Assembly (NCBI GenBank): GCA_000092065.1
Contig: CP000595.1
Length of the DNA stretch: 64,000 nucleotides
Reading direction: 5' to 3' (one strand)
Origin: Ostreococcus lucimarinus
Taxonomy: Eukaryota
Within the stretch, counting starts at the first letter, position 1, and each line of letters starts with the position of its first letter. This document shows, piece by piece, positions 4,284 through 30,987 of the stretch. A program made the position numbers and the translations under genes. Under the pieces are notes generated by a model. The model ran no database searches. It was not told the DNA's origin and worked only from the letters and a program-made list of their open reading frames with translations.

Positions 4284-5918
4284 TTAGTGCGCGTGCCCGT
4301 GCGAGTGGCCGCCGCCGCCGCCGGCTGTGCAGTGCTTGTGGTTGAGGAGCACGAGACTGACGGCGACGACGCCGACGACGAACGTCAAGAGGCTCGCCGC
4401 GCGAAGACGAGACGTAGTGGCGCTCACCGAAACTCGCGGCATACACTCCGCGGCAGCGATTTGTAGATAGATTCCAGCGCCAAAGGCGAGCAAAAGTCCG
4501 TGCCAGAAGTCGTTGTTACTTCCAGATCCAACGCTGATGAGAACGCCGAGGATGACGCTCACGCCGGAGATGAAGTTCATGAACAGCGAGCGAAACGGCG
4601 TGAGATCGCCCTGGAAGGGATCCGTGAGTACCAAATAGTCGGCGAGCTCTTGCGCGATTTCGTGATAGACGGTCGCGGCGGTGATCGACCATCCCATGGT
4701 CTTTCCACAGTTCAGGAAACCGAATCCGATGAAGATGCCATCCACGAGGTTGTGCATGAAATCTCCGAGGATGATGCCGCTTCGAACGCGATACTTGTGC
4801 GAGTGGCACGTTTCGCAATCTTCTTGAACGCCTTTGATCGCGTTCTCCGCGTCGATCGTCTTCGTCTCGGCTAAACGAGAAGGGAACGCGATGGAGATGC
4901 CCAAATCGATGATGTACGCCACGAGAAAGCCAAAGACGGACGCGGACGCCCACCACGCGGTTTGTTGCGACTCATCCGAACCGGCGGGTTTGATCAAATG
5001 CGTGGCTTCGTACAACATCAGATAGAACGCAGCCGAAAGAAGTGCACCGGCGGCAAAGGAGTTAATGATGCAACTCACGAATTCGGGGTACGCTTTCTGC
5101 TTCTTCGCGAAGCTCGGAGAGAGAAAGATGACGCCGGAAAGCGTGACGATGTTGACGATGATCGCCGCCCCGATGGCGTCGGACCACGGTTTTGATTTCT
5201 TTGTAGTCACCGTTTCGGGAAGCGAAGCCACTGGCTCCACGTCATCCCCGTTGACATCCTTGAGATAGTGCGTATCGCGCTCGAACTCGGTGGGAACGTG
5301 CTCGGCGAAAATCGAGACGGCGGCGACGCCAGTCGTATCAATCTTAAACGACGACGTGTGCCAAGCGTTATCAAATTGAAGTTTGACGCATCCACTCCCG
5401 GGCGTCAAAACGCTGTTTCGCGTTTTAACCGTCGTGCACGCCGTCTCGAGCGCGGCCTCGCCCGCGTCCTCGCGAGCCTCGAGCTCTTCGTGTCCGGCGG
5501 CGGTTTCGGCGTAGATGACCATCTTCATGGTCGCGTCCGCGTACTGGTCCTTCACCTTTTCCGCCTGCCACACGTACGCATCGTCCGGAGTCTCAAAGAT
5601 CCCCGCCCATTCGAACGAGTGCGCGTGCGCGCCGGACGCGAGCGCGCCGCGCGCCGCGAGCGCGCTCGAGACGACCGCCGCGCCTCCGAGCGCGGCGCCC
5701 ATCCTCCATCCGCCTCCTCGTCGTCGTCGTCGTCGTCCCGCGCCCGCGGTCGCGTCTCGCGTCGTCATCGCGTCGCGCATCGTCTCGTCTATCGTCTCGT
5801 GCATCGTCTCGTTCGTCGTCGTCGTCGTCGTCGCGCGTCGTCGAGTGCGGCGACCGCGCGCGCCGGCATCGCGACGAGACGACTCGAACCGGCGCGAGGG
5901 GGGTACTTCTCGAGTCAT
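4284..5918 (-). CDS. ZIP-family metal (zinc) transporter, LIV-1-like subtype
   Basis: TM4 motif HNLVDGIFIGFGF and TM5 motif YHEIAQELADYLVL (HExxxExxD) are present. There is a His-rich C-terminal tail GGGGGHSHGHAH and a long extracellular N-domain. A probable signal peptide MGAALGGAAVVSSALAARGALASG suggests the true start is at about 5702. Confidence 0.8.
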   Translation of the reverse strand: MTREVPPSRRFESSRRDAGARGRRTRRRATTTTTTNETMHETIDETMRDAMTTRDATAGAGRRRRRRGGGWRMGAALGGAAVVSSALAARGALASGAHAHSFEWAGIFETPDDAYVWQAEKVKDQYADATMKMVIYAETAAGHEELEAREDAGEAALETACTTVKTRNSVLTPGSGCVKLQFDNAWHTSSFKIDTTGVAAVSIFAEHVPTEFERDTHYLKDVNGDDVEPVASLPETVTTKKSKPWSDAIGAAIIVNIVTLSGVIFLSPSFAKKQKAYPEFVSCIINSFAAGALLSAAFYLMLYEATHLIKPAGSDESQQTAWWASASVFGFLVAYIIDLGISIAFPSRLAETKTIDAENAIKGVQEDCETCHSHKYRVRSGIILGDFMHNLVDGIFIGFGFLNCGKTMGWSITAATVYHEIAQELADYLVLTDPFQGDLTPFRSLFMNFISGVSVILGVLISVGSGSNNDFWHGLLLAFGAGIYLQIAAAECMPRVSVSATTSRLRAASLLTFVVGVVAVSLVLLNHKHCTAGGGGGHSHGHAH

Positions 5919-5943: not shown

Positions 5944-5971
5944 GTGTCGACACCTCGCGAGGTGTCGACAC
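5944..5971. promoter_or_regulatory. 28-bp composite palindrome GTGTCGACAC-CTCGCGAG-GTGTCGACAC containing two ZDRE-like sites (RTGTCGACAY)
   Basis: Read directly from the sequence. It lies in the divergent promoter between the ZIP gene (minus) and the bZIP-like gene (plus). Confidence 0.5.
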
Positions 5972-6017
5972 GCGTGTCTTCGTACGTCCGCGCGCGACGA
6001 CGACGACGACGACGAGG

Positions 6018-6680
6018 ATGACGACCGTCGGCGGCGCCGCGCGACGTGACGATCGAGGCTCGGCGTTGCCTCCGCGATGCGTCGAGATCGCGCGCGAGTC
6101 GCCGTCGGCGTCGCCGTCTCGAAGGAAAACGCCCGCGAACGATCGCGCCGTCAATCGCGCCGCCGTGCGACGGTACCGCGAGCGCAAACGAATGGACGAG
6201 AAGGAGAGAATCGAGGAGTGCGAACGGTTGCGCGGGGAGAACGAGACGTTGAGACTGGCGTTGGAGACGTCACGAGCGGAGTTGAAACATTCGAGGTGGT
6301 TGTTGCGCGTCGTCGCGTGGAAGTACGACTTAGACTTGGCGGATATTCCGACGGAGAAACCGTCGACGTCGACGATGCCGCAAGGGAGGGTGAGAGGAAG
6401 CGATGCAAACGCGGTGTTTCCCGCGGGTGGGGTCCCCGCGCGGAACGACATCGCGCGACCGTTCGCCGCGCGCGGCGTCGCCGAGACGCGGCCTCGGAAA
6501 ATTCCTCGCGCAGCCGACGACGACGCGAAACCGGCGGGCGCGCCTGATGAACTCGAGCTCAAAGATTTCTTGGAGGAATACTTCACGCACGGCGACGCGT
6601 GCCCGTGCTACGAGATCACGGACGCGGACGCGCGCGCGGCGCCGACGCGCGGCGCCGACGCGCGGCACGCGTGGTTCTAG
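6018..6680 (+). CDS. small bZIP-like protein with C-terminal His/Asp/Cys-Pro-Cys motif (paralog A)
   Basis: Basic region NRAAVRRYRERKR (N-x7-R) is followed by a Leu heptad zipper, a conserved ELKHSRWLLRVVA block, and the C-terminal FLEEYFTHGDACPCYE. Start is taken at MTTVGG; the longer ORF 5268..6680 overlaps the ZIP gene and the palindrome. Confidence 0.6.
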   Translation: MTTVGGAARRDDRGSALPPRCVEIARESPSASPSRRKTPANDRAVNRAAVRRYRERKRMDEKERIEECERLRGENETLRLALETSRAELKHSRWLLRVVAWKYDLDLADIPTEKPSTSTMPQGRVRGSDANAVFPAGGVPARNDIARPFAARGVAETRPRKIPRAADDDAKPAGAPDELELKDFLEEYFTHGDACPCYEITDADARAAPTRGADARHAWF

Positions 6681-6869
6681 GTATGACGACACATTTACGT
6701 CACACGGTGAAACGTTTTACGCTTCTAATATTATATTATAAAGTTAGTCAACCTATATAGTTACACGCACCACATGATGTCACACGTGATGTGCACACGC
6801 GTATGTATTCGTACTGTGAGTACAATAAGCCTAACATTGTGTAAAATCCCGTGCCCACGATGATCGCGC

Positions 6870-6879
6870 GTGTCGACAC
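6870..6879. promoter_or_regulatory. ZDRE-like palindrome GTGTCGACAC upstream of the COG0523 gene
   Basis: Exact 10-mer about 75 bp upstream of the MADEQDQ ATG. A CACGTG G-box at about 6783 lies in the AT-rich region just upstream. Confidence 0.45.
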
Positions 6880-6952: not shown

Positions 6953-8167
6953 ATGGCGGACGAGCAAGACCAGACCTCGCGCGTGCCGGTGACCATTCTC
7001 ACCGGATTTCTCGGTTCCGGGAAGACGACGCTCCTCAATGAAATCTTGGAATCCGAAACGCACGGATTGCGCTTCGCGGTGATTGAAAATGAATTCGGAG
7101 AGGTGGGCGTCGACGAGAGGATTCTGTCGGAGAAGGCGGACGAAGAGATCATCGAGGTCATGAACGGTTGCATCTGCTGCACGGTGCGCGGTGATCTCGT
7201 GGTGGCGCTGAAAAAGCTCTACTCGAAGATCGCGCAGTTCGACGCCGTCATCATCGAGACGACGGGTTTGGCGGATCCGGCGCCGGTGGCGCAGACGTTC
7301 TTCGTCGACGATGACATTCGAGAAAAGTTTGTGCTCGACGGAATCATCACGGTCACGGACGCGAAGCACATCCTCACGCGGCTCGATGATGAAAAACCCG
7401 AGGGTGTGGAGAATGAAGCCGCCGAACAGGTCGCTTTTGCCGATCGGATACTCCTCAACAAGACCGACTTGGTGTCCGAAGACGAACTCGAAACCATCAC
7501 GGGCCGGATCAAGCAAATTAATCCGAGCGCCGATATCTTCCGATGCCAGTATTCCAAGGTTGATCCGAAAAATTTGATCGGAATCAATTCCTTCTCGCTC
7601 GAGAAGACCTTAAAAATGGATCCCGAATTCCTCAACACGGAGGGCGAGCATGAACACGACCCAACCGTGTCTTCGACGAGCACAAAATTCTCTGGGCACC
7701 TCAACATCAATAAATTAGAACGCTGGATAGGCGAAATAATTCAAACAATGGGTGCGGACTTGTTTCGGTACAAGGGTGTTCTTTCCGTTGCGGGCATGGA
7801 TCAAAAGTTTGTTTTCCAGGGCGTCGGCATGCTTTTCTCCGGCGGCTTCGTCGACGCCAAGTGGGGAGCCGACGAGGAGCGCGAATGCCGCTTCGTCTTC
7901 ATCGGTAAAAATCTGGACAAAGACGCCCTCATCAACGGTTTCATGGATTGCAAGTGTTCCTCGAAGCTTCGCTTCAAGGTGGGCGACGCGGTTCTCGCGC
8001 AGGTGGGCGCCGCCGACAACGACGGCTACTGCCGCGGCACCGTCCGTAAGACGTGGGACTCGGGCAACCCGTACCAGATCGAACTTGAAGACGGTAAAAA
8101 GACAAAAGTGTGGGGACCCGTCGACGAAGACGAGTTCGTCAAAGCTTCGCTCAGCGCCACCGCGTAA
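6953..8167 (+). CDS. COG0523 / CobW-family GTPase (ZNG1/ZCP-like zinc metallochaperone) with extra C-terminal domain
   Basis: Walker A motif GFLGSGKTT and the metal-binding motif GCICC are present, with a CobW C-terminal domain. The extra C-terminal module is KLRFKVGDAVLAQVG...YQIELEDGKKTKVWGPVDEDEF. Start is moved to MADEQDQ because the ZDRE-like site lies inside the annotated ORF start region. Confidence 0.85.
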   Translation: MADEQDQTSRVPVTILTGFLGSGKTTLLNEILESETHGLRFAVIENEFGEVGVDERILSEKADEEIIEVMNGCICCTVRGDLVVALKKLYSKIAQFDAVIIETTGLADPAPVAQTFFVDDDIREKFVLDGIITVTDAKHILTRLDDEKPEGVENEAAEQVAFADRILLNKTDLVSEDELETITGRIKQINPSADIFRCQYSKVDPKNLIGINSFSLEKTLKMDPEFLNTEGEHEHDPTVSSTSTKFSGHLNINKLERWIGEIIQTMGADLFRYKGVLSVAGMDQKFVFQGVGMLFSGGFVDAKWGADEERECRFVFIGKNLDKDALINGFMDCKCSSKLRFKVGDAVLAQVGAADNDGYCRGTVRKTWDSGNPYQIELEDGKKTKVWGPVDEDEFVKASLSATA

Positions 8168-8315: not shown

Positions 8316-8492
8316 CTCGCCTCGTCCGACGCGCGCGCGCGTCCCGGCGTCGATCGCGCCGCGCGCCGTGGATAGCGTTCCTCGCGAAGATCGCGTCGCG
8401 CGGCGCGCCGTCGCGCGGTCGATCGTCGCGCGCGCCGCGTCCGCGCGCGCGAACGTCGCGCGCGTCGCGTCGCGCGCGAGAGAGACGCGCAT
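8316..8492 (-). pseudogene. orphan 5' fragment of the GWD-like gene (first about 60 codons) carried in duplication copy 2
   Basis: ORF 8151..8492 begins MRVSLARDATRATF..., identical to the GWD N-terminus at 1198..1374, then reads into unrelated sequence. Confidence 0.4.
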
Positions 8493-8634
8493 CGCGCGCG
8501 CGCGCGTCGTCGGTCGCGGTGTGACGATTCGCTTCGACGAATCGAATCGTCAGAGCGCGACGCCGCGCCGCGCGGACGCGTCGACGCGCGGCGCGACGCG
8601 ACGGCGACGCGCGCGGTCCTCCGCGGCGTTTCGC

Positions 8635-8844
8635 ATGTGCGGCGCGTGCCGCGCGCGGCGCGCGAGCGCGAGAGAGACGACGACGCGCGCGGAATTCTGC
8701 GCGCCGTGTCGCGACGGCGCGAGAGCGACGACGACGCGCGCGACGCGCGTCGCGGACGGGGCGTCGTTCGACGTCGTCGTGTGCGGCGCGGGCGCGGCGG
8801 GGACGTCGTTCGCGCGGACGTACCTGGAGACGACGGCGCGGGGT

Positions 8845-26699: not shown

Positions 26700-27194
26700 A
26701 TGCGCGCGTCGCGCGGCGACGACGCGCCGGCGCTCCCGGGACGCGCGGTCGCGGTGGACGAAGACAAAAAATCGATCGACAACGACGCGAACAAGCGCGC
26801 CGTCAAGCGCTACCGCGATCGTCAGCGCGACGCGAAGATGAAGTTGGAATCCGAAAACGCGGCGCTGCGAGTGGAGACGACGCGGTTGGCGACGGAGCTC
26901 GCGCACGCGCGATGGGTGCTCGACGCGGTGGCGTCGCGGTGCGGGATGAAGCGACGCGCGACGGGGCGCGACGCGGACGCGGCGCTGCGCCGAAGCGTCG
27001 CGCGCGTGATCCACGGCGCGGGGTGCCCGCTGGGACATCAGGGGCGGGACAGGCCGTTTCGATTGGACGCGACGGAGGCGAGGCGACGCGAGGACGAGGA
27101 CGAGGACGAGTTGGCGGCGTTTTTGAAGGAGTTTTTGGTGCACGAGGACGGGAAGTGTCCGTGCCCGGGGCGCGCGCGCGATGGGGGCGAGTAG
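26700..27194 (+). CDS. small bZIP-like protein with C-terminal Cys-Pro-Cys motif (paralog B)
   Basis: NKRAVKRYRDRQR (N-x7-R) is followed by an L-x6-L-x6-L zipper, the conserved ELAHARWVLDAVA block and FLKEFLVHEDGKCPCPG. It has the same architecture as paralog A. Confidence 0.6.
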   Translation: MRASRGDDAPALPGRAVAVDEDKKSIDNDANKRAVKRYRDRQRDAKMKLESENAALRVETTRLATELAHARWVLDAVASRCGMKRRATGRDADAALRRSVARVIHGAGCPLGHQGRDRPFRLDATEARRREDEDEDELAAFLKEFLVHEDGKCPCPGRARDGGE

Positions 27195-27675: not shown

Positions 27676-29166
27676 CTAGTGCGCGTGCTCGACGCCGAGT
27701 TGCGCGAGCGCGATGACGAGAACGCCGGCGGTGTAACACACGAACTTGTAAATGCGCATGCCGCGCGCGGGCGCTTCGTGCACGGTGTGCGTGTGCGGAG
27801 CGAGTTTATGGTCGTGACCGTGCTCGTCTTCGCACGATTGCGTTTGCGTCTCGAACTCGTCGCCGATGACTTCCACGGTACCGACGTAAATGAACGTACC
27901 GGCGGCGATGCCCTCGAGGACGGCGGAGACGGCTGGGCTGTGTGCGCTTTCCGCCGCGCACCCGATCAAGATCCCGATCGGGGTTATGAACGAAAACGCC
28001 GTCATGAAAATGAAGAGCGTCTGCGGATTCGTCATGCCGCAGCGCAAAAACGCGCACCCGATGCTGAACGCGGCCGCGGCTTTGTGCGACGCGATGGCGG
28101 TGAAAATCGCGTACACACTGTTTCGATCGCTTTGAAGCCCGAGGGAGACACCCGCGAGAGAGGCGTGCAACGCGACGCCCGCCATGAAGAGCAAAGCCGT
28201 TCTCGTCTGCGCGAAGATGGACACGTGACGACCCTTCTCGTCGTGCGCGCACGTGTCGCACGCGTCGGTCGACGCCTTGTCCACGACGACGACGACGGCC
28301 GCATCGACGTGATGTTCTTTACTTTGTCCGTGTCCGTGTCCGTGTCCGTGGCCGTGCTCTCCGTCGCCCTCGCTCTCCGTCACGTGCGAGTGCGTGTGAA
28401 ACACGACGCGTTCGACGAAGAACGCGATGAGAAATCCCAGCATGACCATGACCATGGCGAAAGGATACTCCTTCGCCGTACCGATGCGTGCCTCCGTCGC
28501 GCTCTCGAGCGCGTGCGGGACGAGGTGCACGAACCCAGACGCGAGAAACAATCCCCCGCTGAACGCGTTCATAAACTCCAACGCGCTCTGCATCTTCGGC
28601 AGCGTTCTCACGAACAGCGACGGCAACATTCCTCCCGCCAAACCTTCAAAAAACACAGCCACCATGAGACCCATCTTGAGTTTGAAATGCTTCAACCCAC
28701 CCGTCGCCGCCGCCGCGCTTTCCGCCTCGCTCGCGATGAACGTGCACGTCGACTCGCTCAGGCACCGCGCCGCCAAACTCAGCGCCGAGAGCAACTCGGT
28801 CTCGTTCAACTTTTGATCCGCGCCCGCGTACGTCGTGATCACGTCCGCCGACGACACGTTCGTCAGCGTCTCCTCCGCGCTCGCGTGCGCGTGTCCAGCG
28901 CTCGCGTGCGCGTGTCCAGCGTGCGAATCCGCGCCCGCGCCCGCGCCGCTCGTCCTCGCCGCGAACCGCTCGAACAATTCGCTCAGCTCGTGAGCGTCCA
29001 TCGTCGCGTCGTCGTTGTCGTCGTTGTACGTCTCCAAGATGTGATCCACCGGCGTCTCGTCGCCTCTCGCGACGCGCGCCATCGCGCACGCGCACGCGCA
29101 CACCGTCAGCGCCGTCGCGAATCGCGCGCGCGCCCGTCGACACCGCCGCCGGTCGTTCGCCGTCAT
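27676..29166 (-). CDS. ZIP-family metal transporter, IRT/ZRT-like subtype
   Basis: His-rich motifs DSHAGHAHASAGHAHAS and GEHGHGHGHGHGQSKEHH are present, with TM motifs LHASLAGVSLGL and SHKAAAAFSIG. The 496-aa product starts at MTANDRR; the 1118-aa ORF-track call is upstream read-through. Confidence 0.8.
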   Translation of the reverse strand: MTANDRRRCRRARARFATALTVCACACAMARVARGDETPVDHILETYNDDNDDATMDAHELSELFERFAARTSGAGAGADSHAGHAHASAGHAHASAEETLTNVSSADVITTYAGADQKLNETELLSALSLAARCLSESTCTFIASEAESAAAATGGLKHFKLKMGLMVAVFFEGLAGGMLPSLFVRTLPKMQSALEFMNAFSGGLFLASGFVHLVPHALESATEARIGTAKEYPFAMVMVMLGFLIAFFVERVVFHTHSHVTESEGDGEHGHGHGHGHGQSKEHHVDAAVVVVVDKASTDACDTCAHDEKGRHVSIFAQTRTALLFMAGVALHASLAGVSLGLQSDRNSVYAIFTAIASHKAAAAFSIGCAFLRCGMTNPQTLFIFMTAFSFITPIGILIGCAAESAHSPAVSAVLEGIAAGTFIYVGTVEVIGDEFETQTQSCEDEHGHDHKLAPHTHTVHEAPARGMRIYKFVCYTAGVLVIALAQLGVEHAH

Positions 29167-29397
29167 CTTGTCTCGCGCCGTCGCGAATCGCGCGCGCGTC
29201 GAGTCCCGGTCTCGACGCCCGCGCCCGGTTCGCCCCGGTTCGAGCGCGCGCGAACGAGCCGAAGAGGCGTCGCGAAGTGCGGCGATGCGCGCGCGTCGTG
29301 CACGTGTCGACGATTCGCGTCGTGCACGTGTCGAGGATCGTCGTACGCGACGCCCCGCGAAGCCCATCACGGATCGCGTCGCGACGCGCGTCGTAAA

Positions 29398-29497
29398 CAT
29401 GTCGACACGCATGTCGACATATTTACCCACGCGCGTGTACGCATTGAACCCCGTGATGCATCTATATACGAAAAACGTCTCGACGCACATGTCGACA
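29398..29497. promoter_or_regulatory. three ZDRE-like palindromes (ATGTCGACAC at 29398, ATGTCGACAT at 29410 and 29488) in the promoter shared by the ZIP and LHC genes
   Basis: Exact 10-mers read from the sequence. They lie about 230-330 bp upstream of both flanking start codons. Confidence 0.5.
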
Positions 29498-29565
29498 TAT
29501 TTACCCCACGCGCGTGTACGCATTGAACCCCGTGATGCATCTATATACGAAACAGATAAATGCAC
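29408..29565. repeat. about 78-bp tandem repeat (2 copies), relatively AT-rich, carrying the ZDRE-like motifs
   Basis: catgtcgacatatttaccc(c)acgcgcgtgtacgcattgaaccccgtgatgcatctatatacgaaa occurs twice. Confidence 0.6.
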
Positions 29566-29715: not shown

Positions 29716-30987
29716 ATGTTCAAGACGAAAGCCCCCGCGCCGAAGACGGCGGTGAAGAAATCCGCGCCGGCGAAGAAGGCGCCGGCGAAGAAGGCGCCGG
29801 CGAAGAAGGTCGCGGCGAAGAAGGCGCCCGTTCGCAAGGCGGGCGACGACGAGGTGCGACGCGAACGACGACGATCGCGACGACCGGGCGCGCGCGACGA
29901 CGCGATGGCGCGCGCGACGACGCGATTGAATGGGAAGAATATTCGCGGCGCGCGTCGGGCGGGGACGGCGCGACGCGCGGCGGGAGGGGAGACGGGAAGG
30001 CGATGGATGCGCGGACGGGGACGATATCCTGGAGATATGGTTTGACGCGCGCGACGCGGGCGCGAGACGCGAGGGCGGCGCGCGGCGCGAGACGGTCGCG
30101 AACGATCGAGAGGGAGAGAAATCGTGGACGCGCGCGCGGTGCGGGACGGATCGGCGGGTCGACGCGCGCGGTGGGCGACGCGGGAGGGCGCGACGCGAAG
30201 ACGACGAGACGACGCGAGACGGAGGACTGACGGCGAACGCTCGCGTTCTCGCGCGATAGCTCTGGCGTCCGGGTGCCGTGCGACCGGCGTGGTTGGATGG
30301 CTCTCTCCCGGGTGACCGTGGATTCGATCCGTTCAACTTGTCCAAGTGCGTGTGGCGACGTGACGCGATGCGACGCGAGCGCGCGAGACGCGTCGACGAA
30401 TCGCAGACTGACGGCGTTTGTTTCGCAGGCCGATTGAATACGTTCAATTCGATCTTGACGCTCTCGATGGCTCCGCCGCGACGAACCCGGCGGGTCGGGT
30501 GATCGGTAAGCTCAAGAAGACCGACAACAAGCCGAAGGCGCGCGCGATCGTGCCGTACGACGAGTCCTTCGACATCATGCGCTTCCGCGAGTGCGAACTC
30601 TTGCACTCTCGCTGGGCCATGCTCGGCTTGGTCGGCGCCACCGCCGCGGAAGCCGCCACGGGTATCTCCTGGGCCGACGCCGGTAAGGTTGAACTTGAAC
30701 AACCGCAATACCTCGGCTTCCCGCTCCCGGGCTTGTCCGTCGCCTCCTTGACGGCGATTGAAGTGCTCGCGATGGGTTACCTCGAAGTCGCCCGCTCGGC
30801 GGAGCTCGACCAAAACAAGCGCATGTACCCGGGCGGCGCGTTCGACCCGCTCGGCTACGTCGCCAACGCCGACGCCGAGGAGGAATTCCGCCTCAAGACG
30901 GCTGAACTCAAGCACGGTCGCTTGGCAATGGTGGGCATGTTGATCATCTCCATCGAAGCCGCGGCCGGCCACGGCGTGCTTCCGTAA
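29716..30987 (+). CDS. light-harvesting chlorophyll a/b-binding protein (Lhca-like), three exons: join(29716..29853, 30260..30345, 30429..30987)
   Basis: Exon 2 encodes the Lhca-type [29 protein letters not shown]. Exon 3 has helix 1 [16 protein letters not shown] and helix 3 [14 protein letters not shown]. The donors are GTGCGA and GTGCGT, both introns have a CTGAC branch, and the acceptors are ...gatag and ...tttcgcag. The spliced CDS is 783 nt in frame. Exon 1 is Lys/Ala-rich ([15 protein letters not shown]...). Confidence 0.7.

Follow-up and report, generated by a model that had tools for sequence, protein, structure and literature searches.

Zinc-deficiency response elements clustered at zinc-type genes in the neighbourhood of two bZIP genes point to a candidate zinc-deficiency circuit in the green alga Ostreococcus lucimarinus

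How might a marine green alga recognize that it is short of zinc? To our knowledge, no transcription factor that responds to zinc has been described in this group, the green algae, and our literature searches turned up none either. The question is raised here by a 64,000-nucleotide stretch of contig CP000595.1 of Ostreococcus lucimarinus (NCBI GenBank assembly GCA_000092065.1), referred to below as the window, in which two genes for small basic leucine zipper (bZIP) proteins, bZIP-A and bZIP-B, are each encoded next to a ZIP metal transporter gene. An earlier reading of this DNA from its letters alone (the sequence-only reading) had suggested that the two proteins may belong to an undescribed algal metal-responsive family. 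What is new here is the clustering, at zinc-type genes, of the Arabidopsis zinc-deficiency response element (ZDRE), RTGTCGACAY (PMC9643250), which recurs together with the gene order in O. tauri and in related metagenome contigs.

In Arabidopsis, the F-bZIPs bZIP19 and bZIP23 bind ZDREs and activate ZIP genes (PMC9643250, PMC5476651), zinc on their Cys/His motif turns this activity off, and mutants of the motif are constitutively active (PMC9643250). F-bZIPs have been reported absent from green algae (O. lucimarinus and C. reinhardtii), with the earliest land plants given as the origin of the subfamily (Castro et al. 2017; 2022 review; PMC5476651, PMC9643250), and a land-plant group could be assigned for only four of eight O. 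tauri bZIPs (Correa et al. 2008). Our searches found no report of a ZDRE in algae, or of a zinc-bZIP module in Micromonas or Ostreococcus, in a literature library that was incomplete, such that this should be taken as absence of evidence.

ZDRE clusters at zinc-type genes in the window and in related loci

The genes on which the analysis bears are given below, with GC3 referring to the GC content at third codon positions.

4284..5918, minus strand: ZIP-A metal transporter (Pfam Zip, 76.4 bits), divergent from bZIP-A; candidate ATG codons at 5918, 5804, 5768 and 5702
6018..6680, plus strand: bZIP-A coding sequence, the ZDRE-linked paralogue; 220 amino acids, ATG at 6018, TAG at 6678-6680, GC3 0.80
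6953..8167, plus strand: COG0523 (CobW/CobW_C) GTPase (Pfam cobW, 206.9 bits; CobW_C, 80.3 bits), directly 3' of bZIP-A
26700..27194, plus strand: bZIP-B coding sequence, paralogue of A; 164 amino acids, ATG at 26700, stop codon at 27192-27194, GC3 0.87
27676..29166, minus strand: ZIP-B metal transporter with a His-rich loop (Pfam Zip, 163.1 bits), convergent with bZIP-B; candidate starts at 29166 and 29082

RTGTCGACAY occurs six times in the window, as compared with 0.50 expected occurrences, a count that was reached in none of 100 dinucleotide shuffles, and its 8-mer core, TGTCGACA, is likewise found six times (1.36 expected). All six ZDREs are confined to three promoters, namely those of ZIP-A/bZIP-A, the COG0523 GTPase and ZIP-B, with none elsewhere in the window. 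They are listed here without strand, together with one variant element.

5944..5971: pair of exact ZDREs, both GTGTCGACAC (5944 and 5962, 18 bp apart), within the approximately 100-bp divergent ZIP-A/bZIP-A intergenic region
6683..6692: variant ZDRE ATGACGACAC, lying 3 bp past the bZIP-A stop codon and 5' of the COG0523 gene, with ATTTACGT after it
6870..6879: exact ZDRE GTGTCGACAC, 83 bp ahead of position 6953, the probable ATG of COG0523
29399..29498: three exact ZDREs, at 29399, 29411 and 29489, 230-330 bp upstream of ZIP-B and within a 79-bp tandem repeat (29395..29552)

The variant ATGACGACAC fits RTG(T/A)CGACAY, the variant consensus of the element in land plants (PMC9643250). The COG0523 gene, which the sequence-only reading had overlooked, is of the zinc-metallochaperone type, with a CxCC motif (GCICCT) visible in its translation; its inclusion in the ZDRE-bearing set distinguishes the alga from land plants. 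COG0523 genes are induced by zinc deficiency in Chlamydomonas, as cited in PMC12891040. Past CobW_C, the protein has a C-terminal extension (about residues 367-420 of the open reading frame (ORF) starting at 6851) that gives a weak match to DUF4537 (E = 0.0021).

In the ZIP-B promoter, every unit of the 79-bp tandem repeat consists of an exact ZDRE (ATGTCGACAT) and then ATTTACCCC. The window holds two copies (29395..29552) and the related locus L005 holds three (8453..8689), with more ZDRE-bearing copies being found in L057 (5540..5730) and L011 (2263..2455). As read from these contigs, the cis-regulatory unit at ZIP-B varies in copy number among closely related strains.

Beyond the window, the regulon was examined in about a dozen short loci. 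In the region between ZIP and bZIP-A, the exact ZDREs were distributed as follows.

L001 (O. tauri): three exact ZDREs at 12-bp spacing (0.13 expected)
L002: three exact ZDREs, and one past the stop codon
L003: five exact ZDREs
L130: two exact ZDREs

The same four loci carry the variant ZDRE (ATGACGACAY), with a trailing yTTTAyGT, at the same position 5' of COG0523. Upstream of ZIP-B, L005, L057 and L011 have four ZDREs each, whereas L128 has two TGTCGACA cores. The enrichment seen in the promoters of the window is conserved in O. tauri and in five other loci. Promoters of the ZIP targets of land-plant F-bZIPs are likewise enriched in ZDREs, usually in pairs, and in ZIP4-type promoters strong induction needs both copies (PMC5476651). 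Ostreococcus-like contigs have a third ZIP gene, downstream of CobW, that shows EF-hand matches at its N-terminus (L003, 9036..10796), and 107 bp upstream of this gene there is again a variant ZDRE, ATGACGACAT plus CTTTATGT.

When metagenomes were scanned for the tandem ZDRE TGTCGACAYNNRTGTCGACA, the matches listed were mostly soil contigs of about 0.60 GC (among loci L008-L127), where the string probably serves as a bacterial operator unrelated to the ZDRE. Among the matches listed, just two, L011 and L057, lie at the ZIP-B locus.

Gene order recurs along with the elements. ZIP (minus), bZIP-A (plus) and CobW (plus) follow one another in O. tauri, in the Ostreococcus-like contigs L003 and L004 and in L130, L002 shows the ZIP/bZIP-A pair only, and the order HAD (minus), bZIP-B (plus) and ZIP (minus) is found in L005, L006, L007 and L128. 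The adjacency to ZIP transporters that the sequence-only reading had pointed to, with ZIP-A divergent from A and ZIP-B convergent with B, was borne out, and the two bZIP genes co-occur with ZIP genes in syntenic linkage in several lineages. Divergent from the ZIP-B promoter lies a chlorophyll a/b-binding gene, of the light-harvesting complex (LHC)-like type, with an intron (exon 1, 29717..~29900; exon 2, 30418..30987). The arrangement of the LHC-like gene beside the ZDRE-bearing ZIP-B promoter is kept in L005 and L128. This gene might be co-regulated by zinc status.

Two paralogous bZIP proteins and their likeness to land-plant F-bZIPs

Both coding sequences have their highest GC content at the third position among the three frames, resembling the adjoining genes (the GC content of the window is about 0.64). 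Chance ORFs or non-coding sequence were ruled out by GC3, by the Pfam matches and by the conservation of the orthologues at the protein level. An upstream start of bZIP-A at ATG 5931, which would turn the ZDREs into coding sequence, was rejected because the ZDRE frames differ among orthologues (VDT as opposed to STPVSTP) and because the O. tauri gene model begins downstream of the ZDREs. It was these called N-terminal 'extensions' of the orthologues, reading VDT or STPVSTP, that raised the suspicion of a translated palindrome. Directly 5' of the bZIP-A start codon lies a (GAC)n microsatellite (5998..6015), and gene callers of the prokaryote style, as applied to metagenome contigs, prolong the bZIP-A ORF through (GAC)n and the ZDREs.

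The description of A and B as two small paralogous bZIP-like proteins was upheld. The two align from the N-terminus to the Cys-Pro-Cys (CPC) motif (BLASTP E = 4e-10, 43.1 bits, 30% identity), and the features of the bZIP superfamily (PF07716/PF00170), i.e. a basic region of the form N-x7-R and a heptad Leu zipper, are present. Against Pfam bZIP_2 (cutoff 22.3 bits), A scores 29.3 bits and B 17.3 bits, which is under the cutoff; B is, however, homologous to A and has the same invariant residues in the basic region. AlphaFold2 (AF2) predicts the long bZIP helix of both proteins confidently, with a pLDDT (predicted local confidence) of 90-98, spanning residues 39-102 in A. The blocks referred to below are as follows.

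6153..6191, plus strand: basic region of A, NRAAVRRYRERKR, with DNA-contact residues N, A, V, Y and R in invariant columns
6279..6317, plus strand: distal zipper-helix block of A, ELKHSRWLLRVVA, with invariant His91 and Trp94
6546..6608, plus strand: DELELKDFLEEYFTHGDACPC, the C-terminal module of A, in which His/Asp/Cys-Pro-Cys comes after an amphipathic helix of acidic character; candidate zinc switch
26790..26828, plus strand: basic region of B, NKRAVKRYRDRQR
27009..27068, plus strand: first His/Cys unit of B, IHGAGCPLGH...RPFRLD, with the conserved form AHGxGCPL..GPFRLD
27105..27170, plus strand: C-terminal module of B, DELAAFLKEFLVHEDGKCPCPG

Invariance was counted over 12 A and B family members, using the residue numbers of A. 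The three blocks that the sequence-only reading had described as common to A and B proved real, each with invariant columns, comprising N46, A49, R52, Y53, R54, R56 and R58 in the basic region, E88, L89, H91, W94, L96 and A100 in the distal zipper block, and F184, L185, C195, P196 and C197 in the C-terminal block, where H191 is nearly invariant. With heptads read off the sequence, His91 and Trp94 would lie on the outer face of the A zipper helix. A fourth common motif, missed in the sequence-only reading, is an N-terminal ALPxRxV (6063..6083 in A, 26730..26750 in B), the Arg of which is invariant.

Orthologues of A were found in O. tauri and in many marine metagenome contigs, Micromonas-like ones among them. 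P0021, the orthologue in O. tauri, shares 52% identity with A and bears no annotation beyond 'Basic-leucine zipper domain'. The string ELELKxFLE[ED]YFTHGDACPC is nearly unchanged in the A orthologues, and the linker of about 70 residues ahead of this block is not conserved. Orthologues of B retain ELAHARWVLDAVA, the AHGxGCPL..GPFRLD unit and a terminal DELxxFLxEFLVHxDxxCPCPGH, while another clade prolongs the C-terminal module to CPCPGHSHxxSHE. The family and its CPC block are hence conserved across Mamiellales, including O. tauri, with Cys-Pro-Cys invariant in the orthologues. In a HMMER search run exhaustively over 1.84 billion representatives, full-length members were confined to the A/B group, with the addition of two remote relatives, P0049 and P0061. 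Both of these combine an F-type basic region with C-terminal Cys/Pro/His units, P0049 having two H-x3-CPL-x-G...GPFRLP units, as in the first His/Cys unit of B, and P0061 having a C-terminal FRLP..HLPGC..CPGGHCP segment. P0049 sits on a transcript-like 1.2-kb contig (L135) that has no promoter.

What do such proteins resemble among known bZIPs? Of 57 family domains, 56 carry the DNA-contact residues N, A, V, Y and R, as does every land-plant F-bZIP that was recovered, including all those with the plant zinc-sensor motif, whereas those ATF4-like or fungal domains that were among the matches presented N, A, A, Y and R in 56 of 56 cases and NAVYR in none. Compared with the F-type basic region (G-N-R-[AE]-A-V-R-[KR]-Y-R-E-K-K-K-A, with NAVYR contacts), both A (NRAAVRRYRERKR) and B (NKRAVKRYRDRQR) conform, and NR[AE]AVR[RK]YRE is common to A/B and some cereal F-bZIPs, in some of which the literal string NRAAVRRYRE is found as well. 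The family does not present the basic region of ATF4 and C/EBP (NxxAAxRYR or NxxAVxKSR), as it combines A-V with Y, a pairing present in neither ATF4-like (NAAYR) nor C/EBP (NAVSR) domains. In a word-indexed search with the family profile, the only named non-algal matches were land-plant F-bZIPs carrying CTHTHTCNP...HTHTC, although this search scores just the 8000 candidates richest in shared words and is thus biased toward the NRAAVRRYRE string. Against a profile built from 14 plant F-bZIP domains, the algal proteins reached 27-38 bits, which places them ahead of nearly every ATF4-like or fungal bZIP and behind the metagenomic proteins P0046, P0126 and P0061.

P0046 and P0126, two large eukaryotic proteins from metagenomes, each contain two F-type bZIP domains (GNR[AE]AVRRYRE[KR]KKA). 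Near their N-termini, they have Cys/His clusters (CVHAHHTC, CWHVHR and CFHTHR) that resemble the plant zinc-sensor motif. With the algal profile (E = 3e-10), and likewise with that of the plant F-bZIPs (69 bits), they were the top non-family matches.

Among solved structures, the best sequence match in the PDB was ATF4 (1ci6_A, E = 2.4e-06), with NFIL3 and C/EBP beta coming next, and the R-Y-R core is common to ATF4 and A/B. ATF4-like proteins nonetheless differ in their N..AA..YR contacts and have no Cys/His tail, ZDRE or metal link.

The C-terminal module, the proposed circuit and its alternatives

Considering these findings together, we judge it probable, at roughly 65%, that A and B are algal zinc-deficiency regulators that would work in an F-bZIP-like manner through ZDREs, with the tail serving as a zinc switch. 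The basic region, given its F-bZIP contact residues, would recognize the palindromic ZDRE (RTGTCGACAY, or the variant ATGACGACAY), and low cellular zinc would lead the factor to switch on the ZDRE-clustered targets, namely the two ZIP uptake transporters and the COG0523 zinc-chaperone GTPase. As bZIP-A and ZIP-A have a ZDRE-bearing divergent promoter in common, bZIP-A is probably autoregulated and would be induced along with its targets. Such positive autoregulation would be unlike Arabidopsis, where bZIP19/23 transcripts are not zinc-responsive, and like yeast Zap1. As B has a promoter of its own without a ZDRE, as well as a second His/Cys unit, it would most simply be a constitutively expressed partner or a second sensor.

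The zinc signal would be read by the C-terminal module, in which an acidic, activation-domain-like helix, DELELKDFLEEYF, is followed by His, Asp and Cys-Pro-Cys, and His91, an invariant residue where the zipper helix ends, may be a fourth ligand. More speculatively, H91, H191, C195 and C197 would together make up a four-ligand site that, when zinc-bound, tethers the tail to the zipper. A folded or tethered zinc-bound tail would turn activation off, following the same logic as the Arabidopsis motif. In plants, too, an acidic/hydrophobic segment lies directly ahead of the Cys/His cluster, with FLDEFL or FDDILKD there corresponding to FLEEYF or FLKEFL in the alga. The algal candidate sensor differs, however, in being C-terminal and much shorter (H-x-D-x(1-2)-CPC). 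The sequence-only reading had seen a likeness to bZIP19/23 in role but not in position, and this agrees with what was found, as the plant N-terminal Cys/His motif is missing and the conserved block is C-terminal. Its proposal of an undescribed algal metal-responsive family is supported: the conservation of the family and its CPC block, the ZIP linkage, the ZDRE clusters and the F-bZIP contact residues all speak for it, and the His/Asp/CPC tail can be considered a candidate zinc switch of A and B.

Several points weigh against this assignment. In profile-profile comparison, hhalign scored 83.0 for F-bZIPs (83 columns), 81.5 for ATF4-like (65 columns) and 76.5 for fungal bZIPs, so that the groups were not separated, nor do F-bZIPs come first when entire bZIP domains are ranked by ungapped BLOSUM similarity. 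The plant zinc-sensor motif, CxHTHxCNP...HTHTCxHxH, was found in neither A, B nor any orthologue. Because the profiles do not discriminate and this motif is missing, we have not filed the family as F-bZIP but call it F-bZIP-like in its working; the A/B family may consist of F-bZIP orthologues or may resemble them in function only. With regard to the tail, AF2 gives moderate to low confidence (pLDDT 57-75 in A and B), and the His of the LVHxD element is absent from the B orthologues P0035 and P0036. When a hidden Markov model of the algal tail motif was compared with 87 bZIPs (plant F-bZIPs and 74 others), the plant segment preceding the zinc-sensor motif (FLDEFL, FLNEF and FDDFL) took ranks 1, 3 and 4, but these matches were not significant (i-E 0.2-1.7, the best being 0.2) and serve as a lead only. 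With regard to the DNA elements, one-mismatch ZDREs as a class were not enriched in the window (15 as compared with 11.4 expected), which is why only exact ZDREs and the positionally conserved variant were counted. There is also no ZDRE near bZIP-B, and the loci of the remote relative P0061 (L131-L134) show neither a ZDRE nor a ZIP gene nearby. Finally, ZIP transporters are also able to carry Fe, Mn or Cd.

The alternative that survives best, while still being unlikely, is that A and B regulate this gene set but that the tail is not the sensor, being only an activation domain of the acidic kind, a signal for nuclear export or a peptide that binds a partner, with zinc being sensed elsewhere, e.g. 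by the COG0523 protein, through protein stability or by another factor. Indeed, the acidic and hydrophobic residues of DELELKDFLEEYF follow a pattern that activation domains and Leu-rich export signals typically show. AF2 moreover gives a helix (residues 178-188 in A, at a pLDDT of about 75 and followed by a loop; residues 132-146 in B) and no folded metal site, and the loss of the His in two B orthologues points the same way. An activation helix alone would not, however, demand an invariant Cys-Pro-Cys. This motif is kept in both paralogue families with conserved His/Asp flanks, and in one clade it is followed by a His-rich extension.

Somewhat less probable still is that A and B respond to a signal other than zinc deficiency, such as Fe, Mn, Cd or Cu status or thiol redox, with CPC acting as a Cu(I) or Cd ligand or as a Yap1-like redox switch. 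In P1B ATPases, CPC serves as a ligand motif for soft metals, and Yap1 has a Cys-rich sensor at its C-terminus. The basic region of A and B is, however, not of the Yap type, which is N..AQ..FR. Although ZIP transporters lack specificity for zinc (PMC9643250), the alga uses a cis-element that matches the zinc-deficiency element of plants exactly, and a COG0523 GTPase with CxCC belongs to the ZDRE set of several lineages, this type of gene being tied to zinc deficiency (PMC12891040).

The weakest alternative, that another factor binds the ZDRE-like palindromes and that A and B are mere neighbours or targets of unrelated function in zinc-gene clusters, could draw on the absence of a ZDRE at bZIP-B, on the tandem TGTCGACA palindromes that also occur, among the matches listed, on unrelated and probably bacterial soil contigs, and on DNA binding by A and B being predicted from their sequence, but is very improbable, given that a spacerless 10-bp palindrome is a typical bZIP dimer site, that the sole known binders of the ZDRE are bZIPs with the same N..AV..YR contacts (PMC9643250) and that the ZIP linkage of both paralogues is kept across genera.

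Known zinc and cysteine switches, and what the cluster may mean

The system nearest to the proposed algal circuit is that of the F-bZIPs, which are likewise small bZIPs with the same contact residues, and whose ZIP promoters carry RTGTCGACAY, including the T/A variant, in pairs or clusters (PMC9643250, PMC5476651). Two further systems are similar in logic. Yeast Zap1 activates ZIP-family uptake genes under zinc deficiency and is transcriptionally autoregulated, and zinc bound within or beside its activation domains turns activity off. It is, however, a C2H2 zinc-finger protein acting on an 11-bp zinc-responsive element, has no bZIP domain and shows no sequence kinship with A and B. In Yap1 and Pap1, as proposed for the tail of A and B, a C-terminal Cys-containing segment overlapping a hydrophobic helix is the signal-sensing switch; Pap1 was also a weak PDB match (E = 0.18). 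Yap1 nonetheless senses oxidants or Cd by way of disulfides that mask an export signal, and its basic-region type and target site are different.

A zinc-starvation circuit that was thought to be a land-plant invention is thus probably found in green algae as well, where its sensor tail would be built differently. The conserved and compact Mamiellales cluster, in which a plant cis-element, a matching bZIP, ZIP transporters and a COG0523 gene come together, contradicts the published surveys (PMC5476651, PMC9643250). A broader version of this conclusion, to which we would give somewhat less than even odds, is that the bZIP/ZDRE zinc-deficiency circuit predates land plants and goes back to the chlorophyte-streptophyte ancestor. 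A and B would then be true but diverged F-bZIPs, with a C-terminal sensor and an A/B pair that is autoregulated, and marine phytoplankton would have in them its first identified transcription factor that senses zinc.

We did not find in PMC9643250 an explanation of how zinc occupancy switches the plant bZIP off, and a candidate sensor as small as His/Asp/Cys-Pro-Cys beside an acidic helix could reveal how zinc occupancy silences a bZIP. Zinc sensing in eukaryotic phytoplankton has been an unsettled question that the present cluster makes testable, as O. tauri is transformable, and ZDRE-driven genes could mark zinc limitation in ocean metatranscriptomes.

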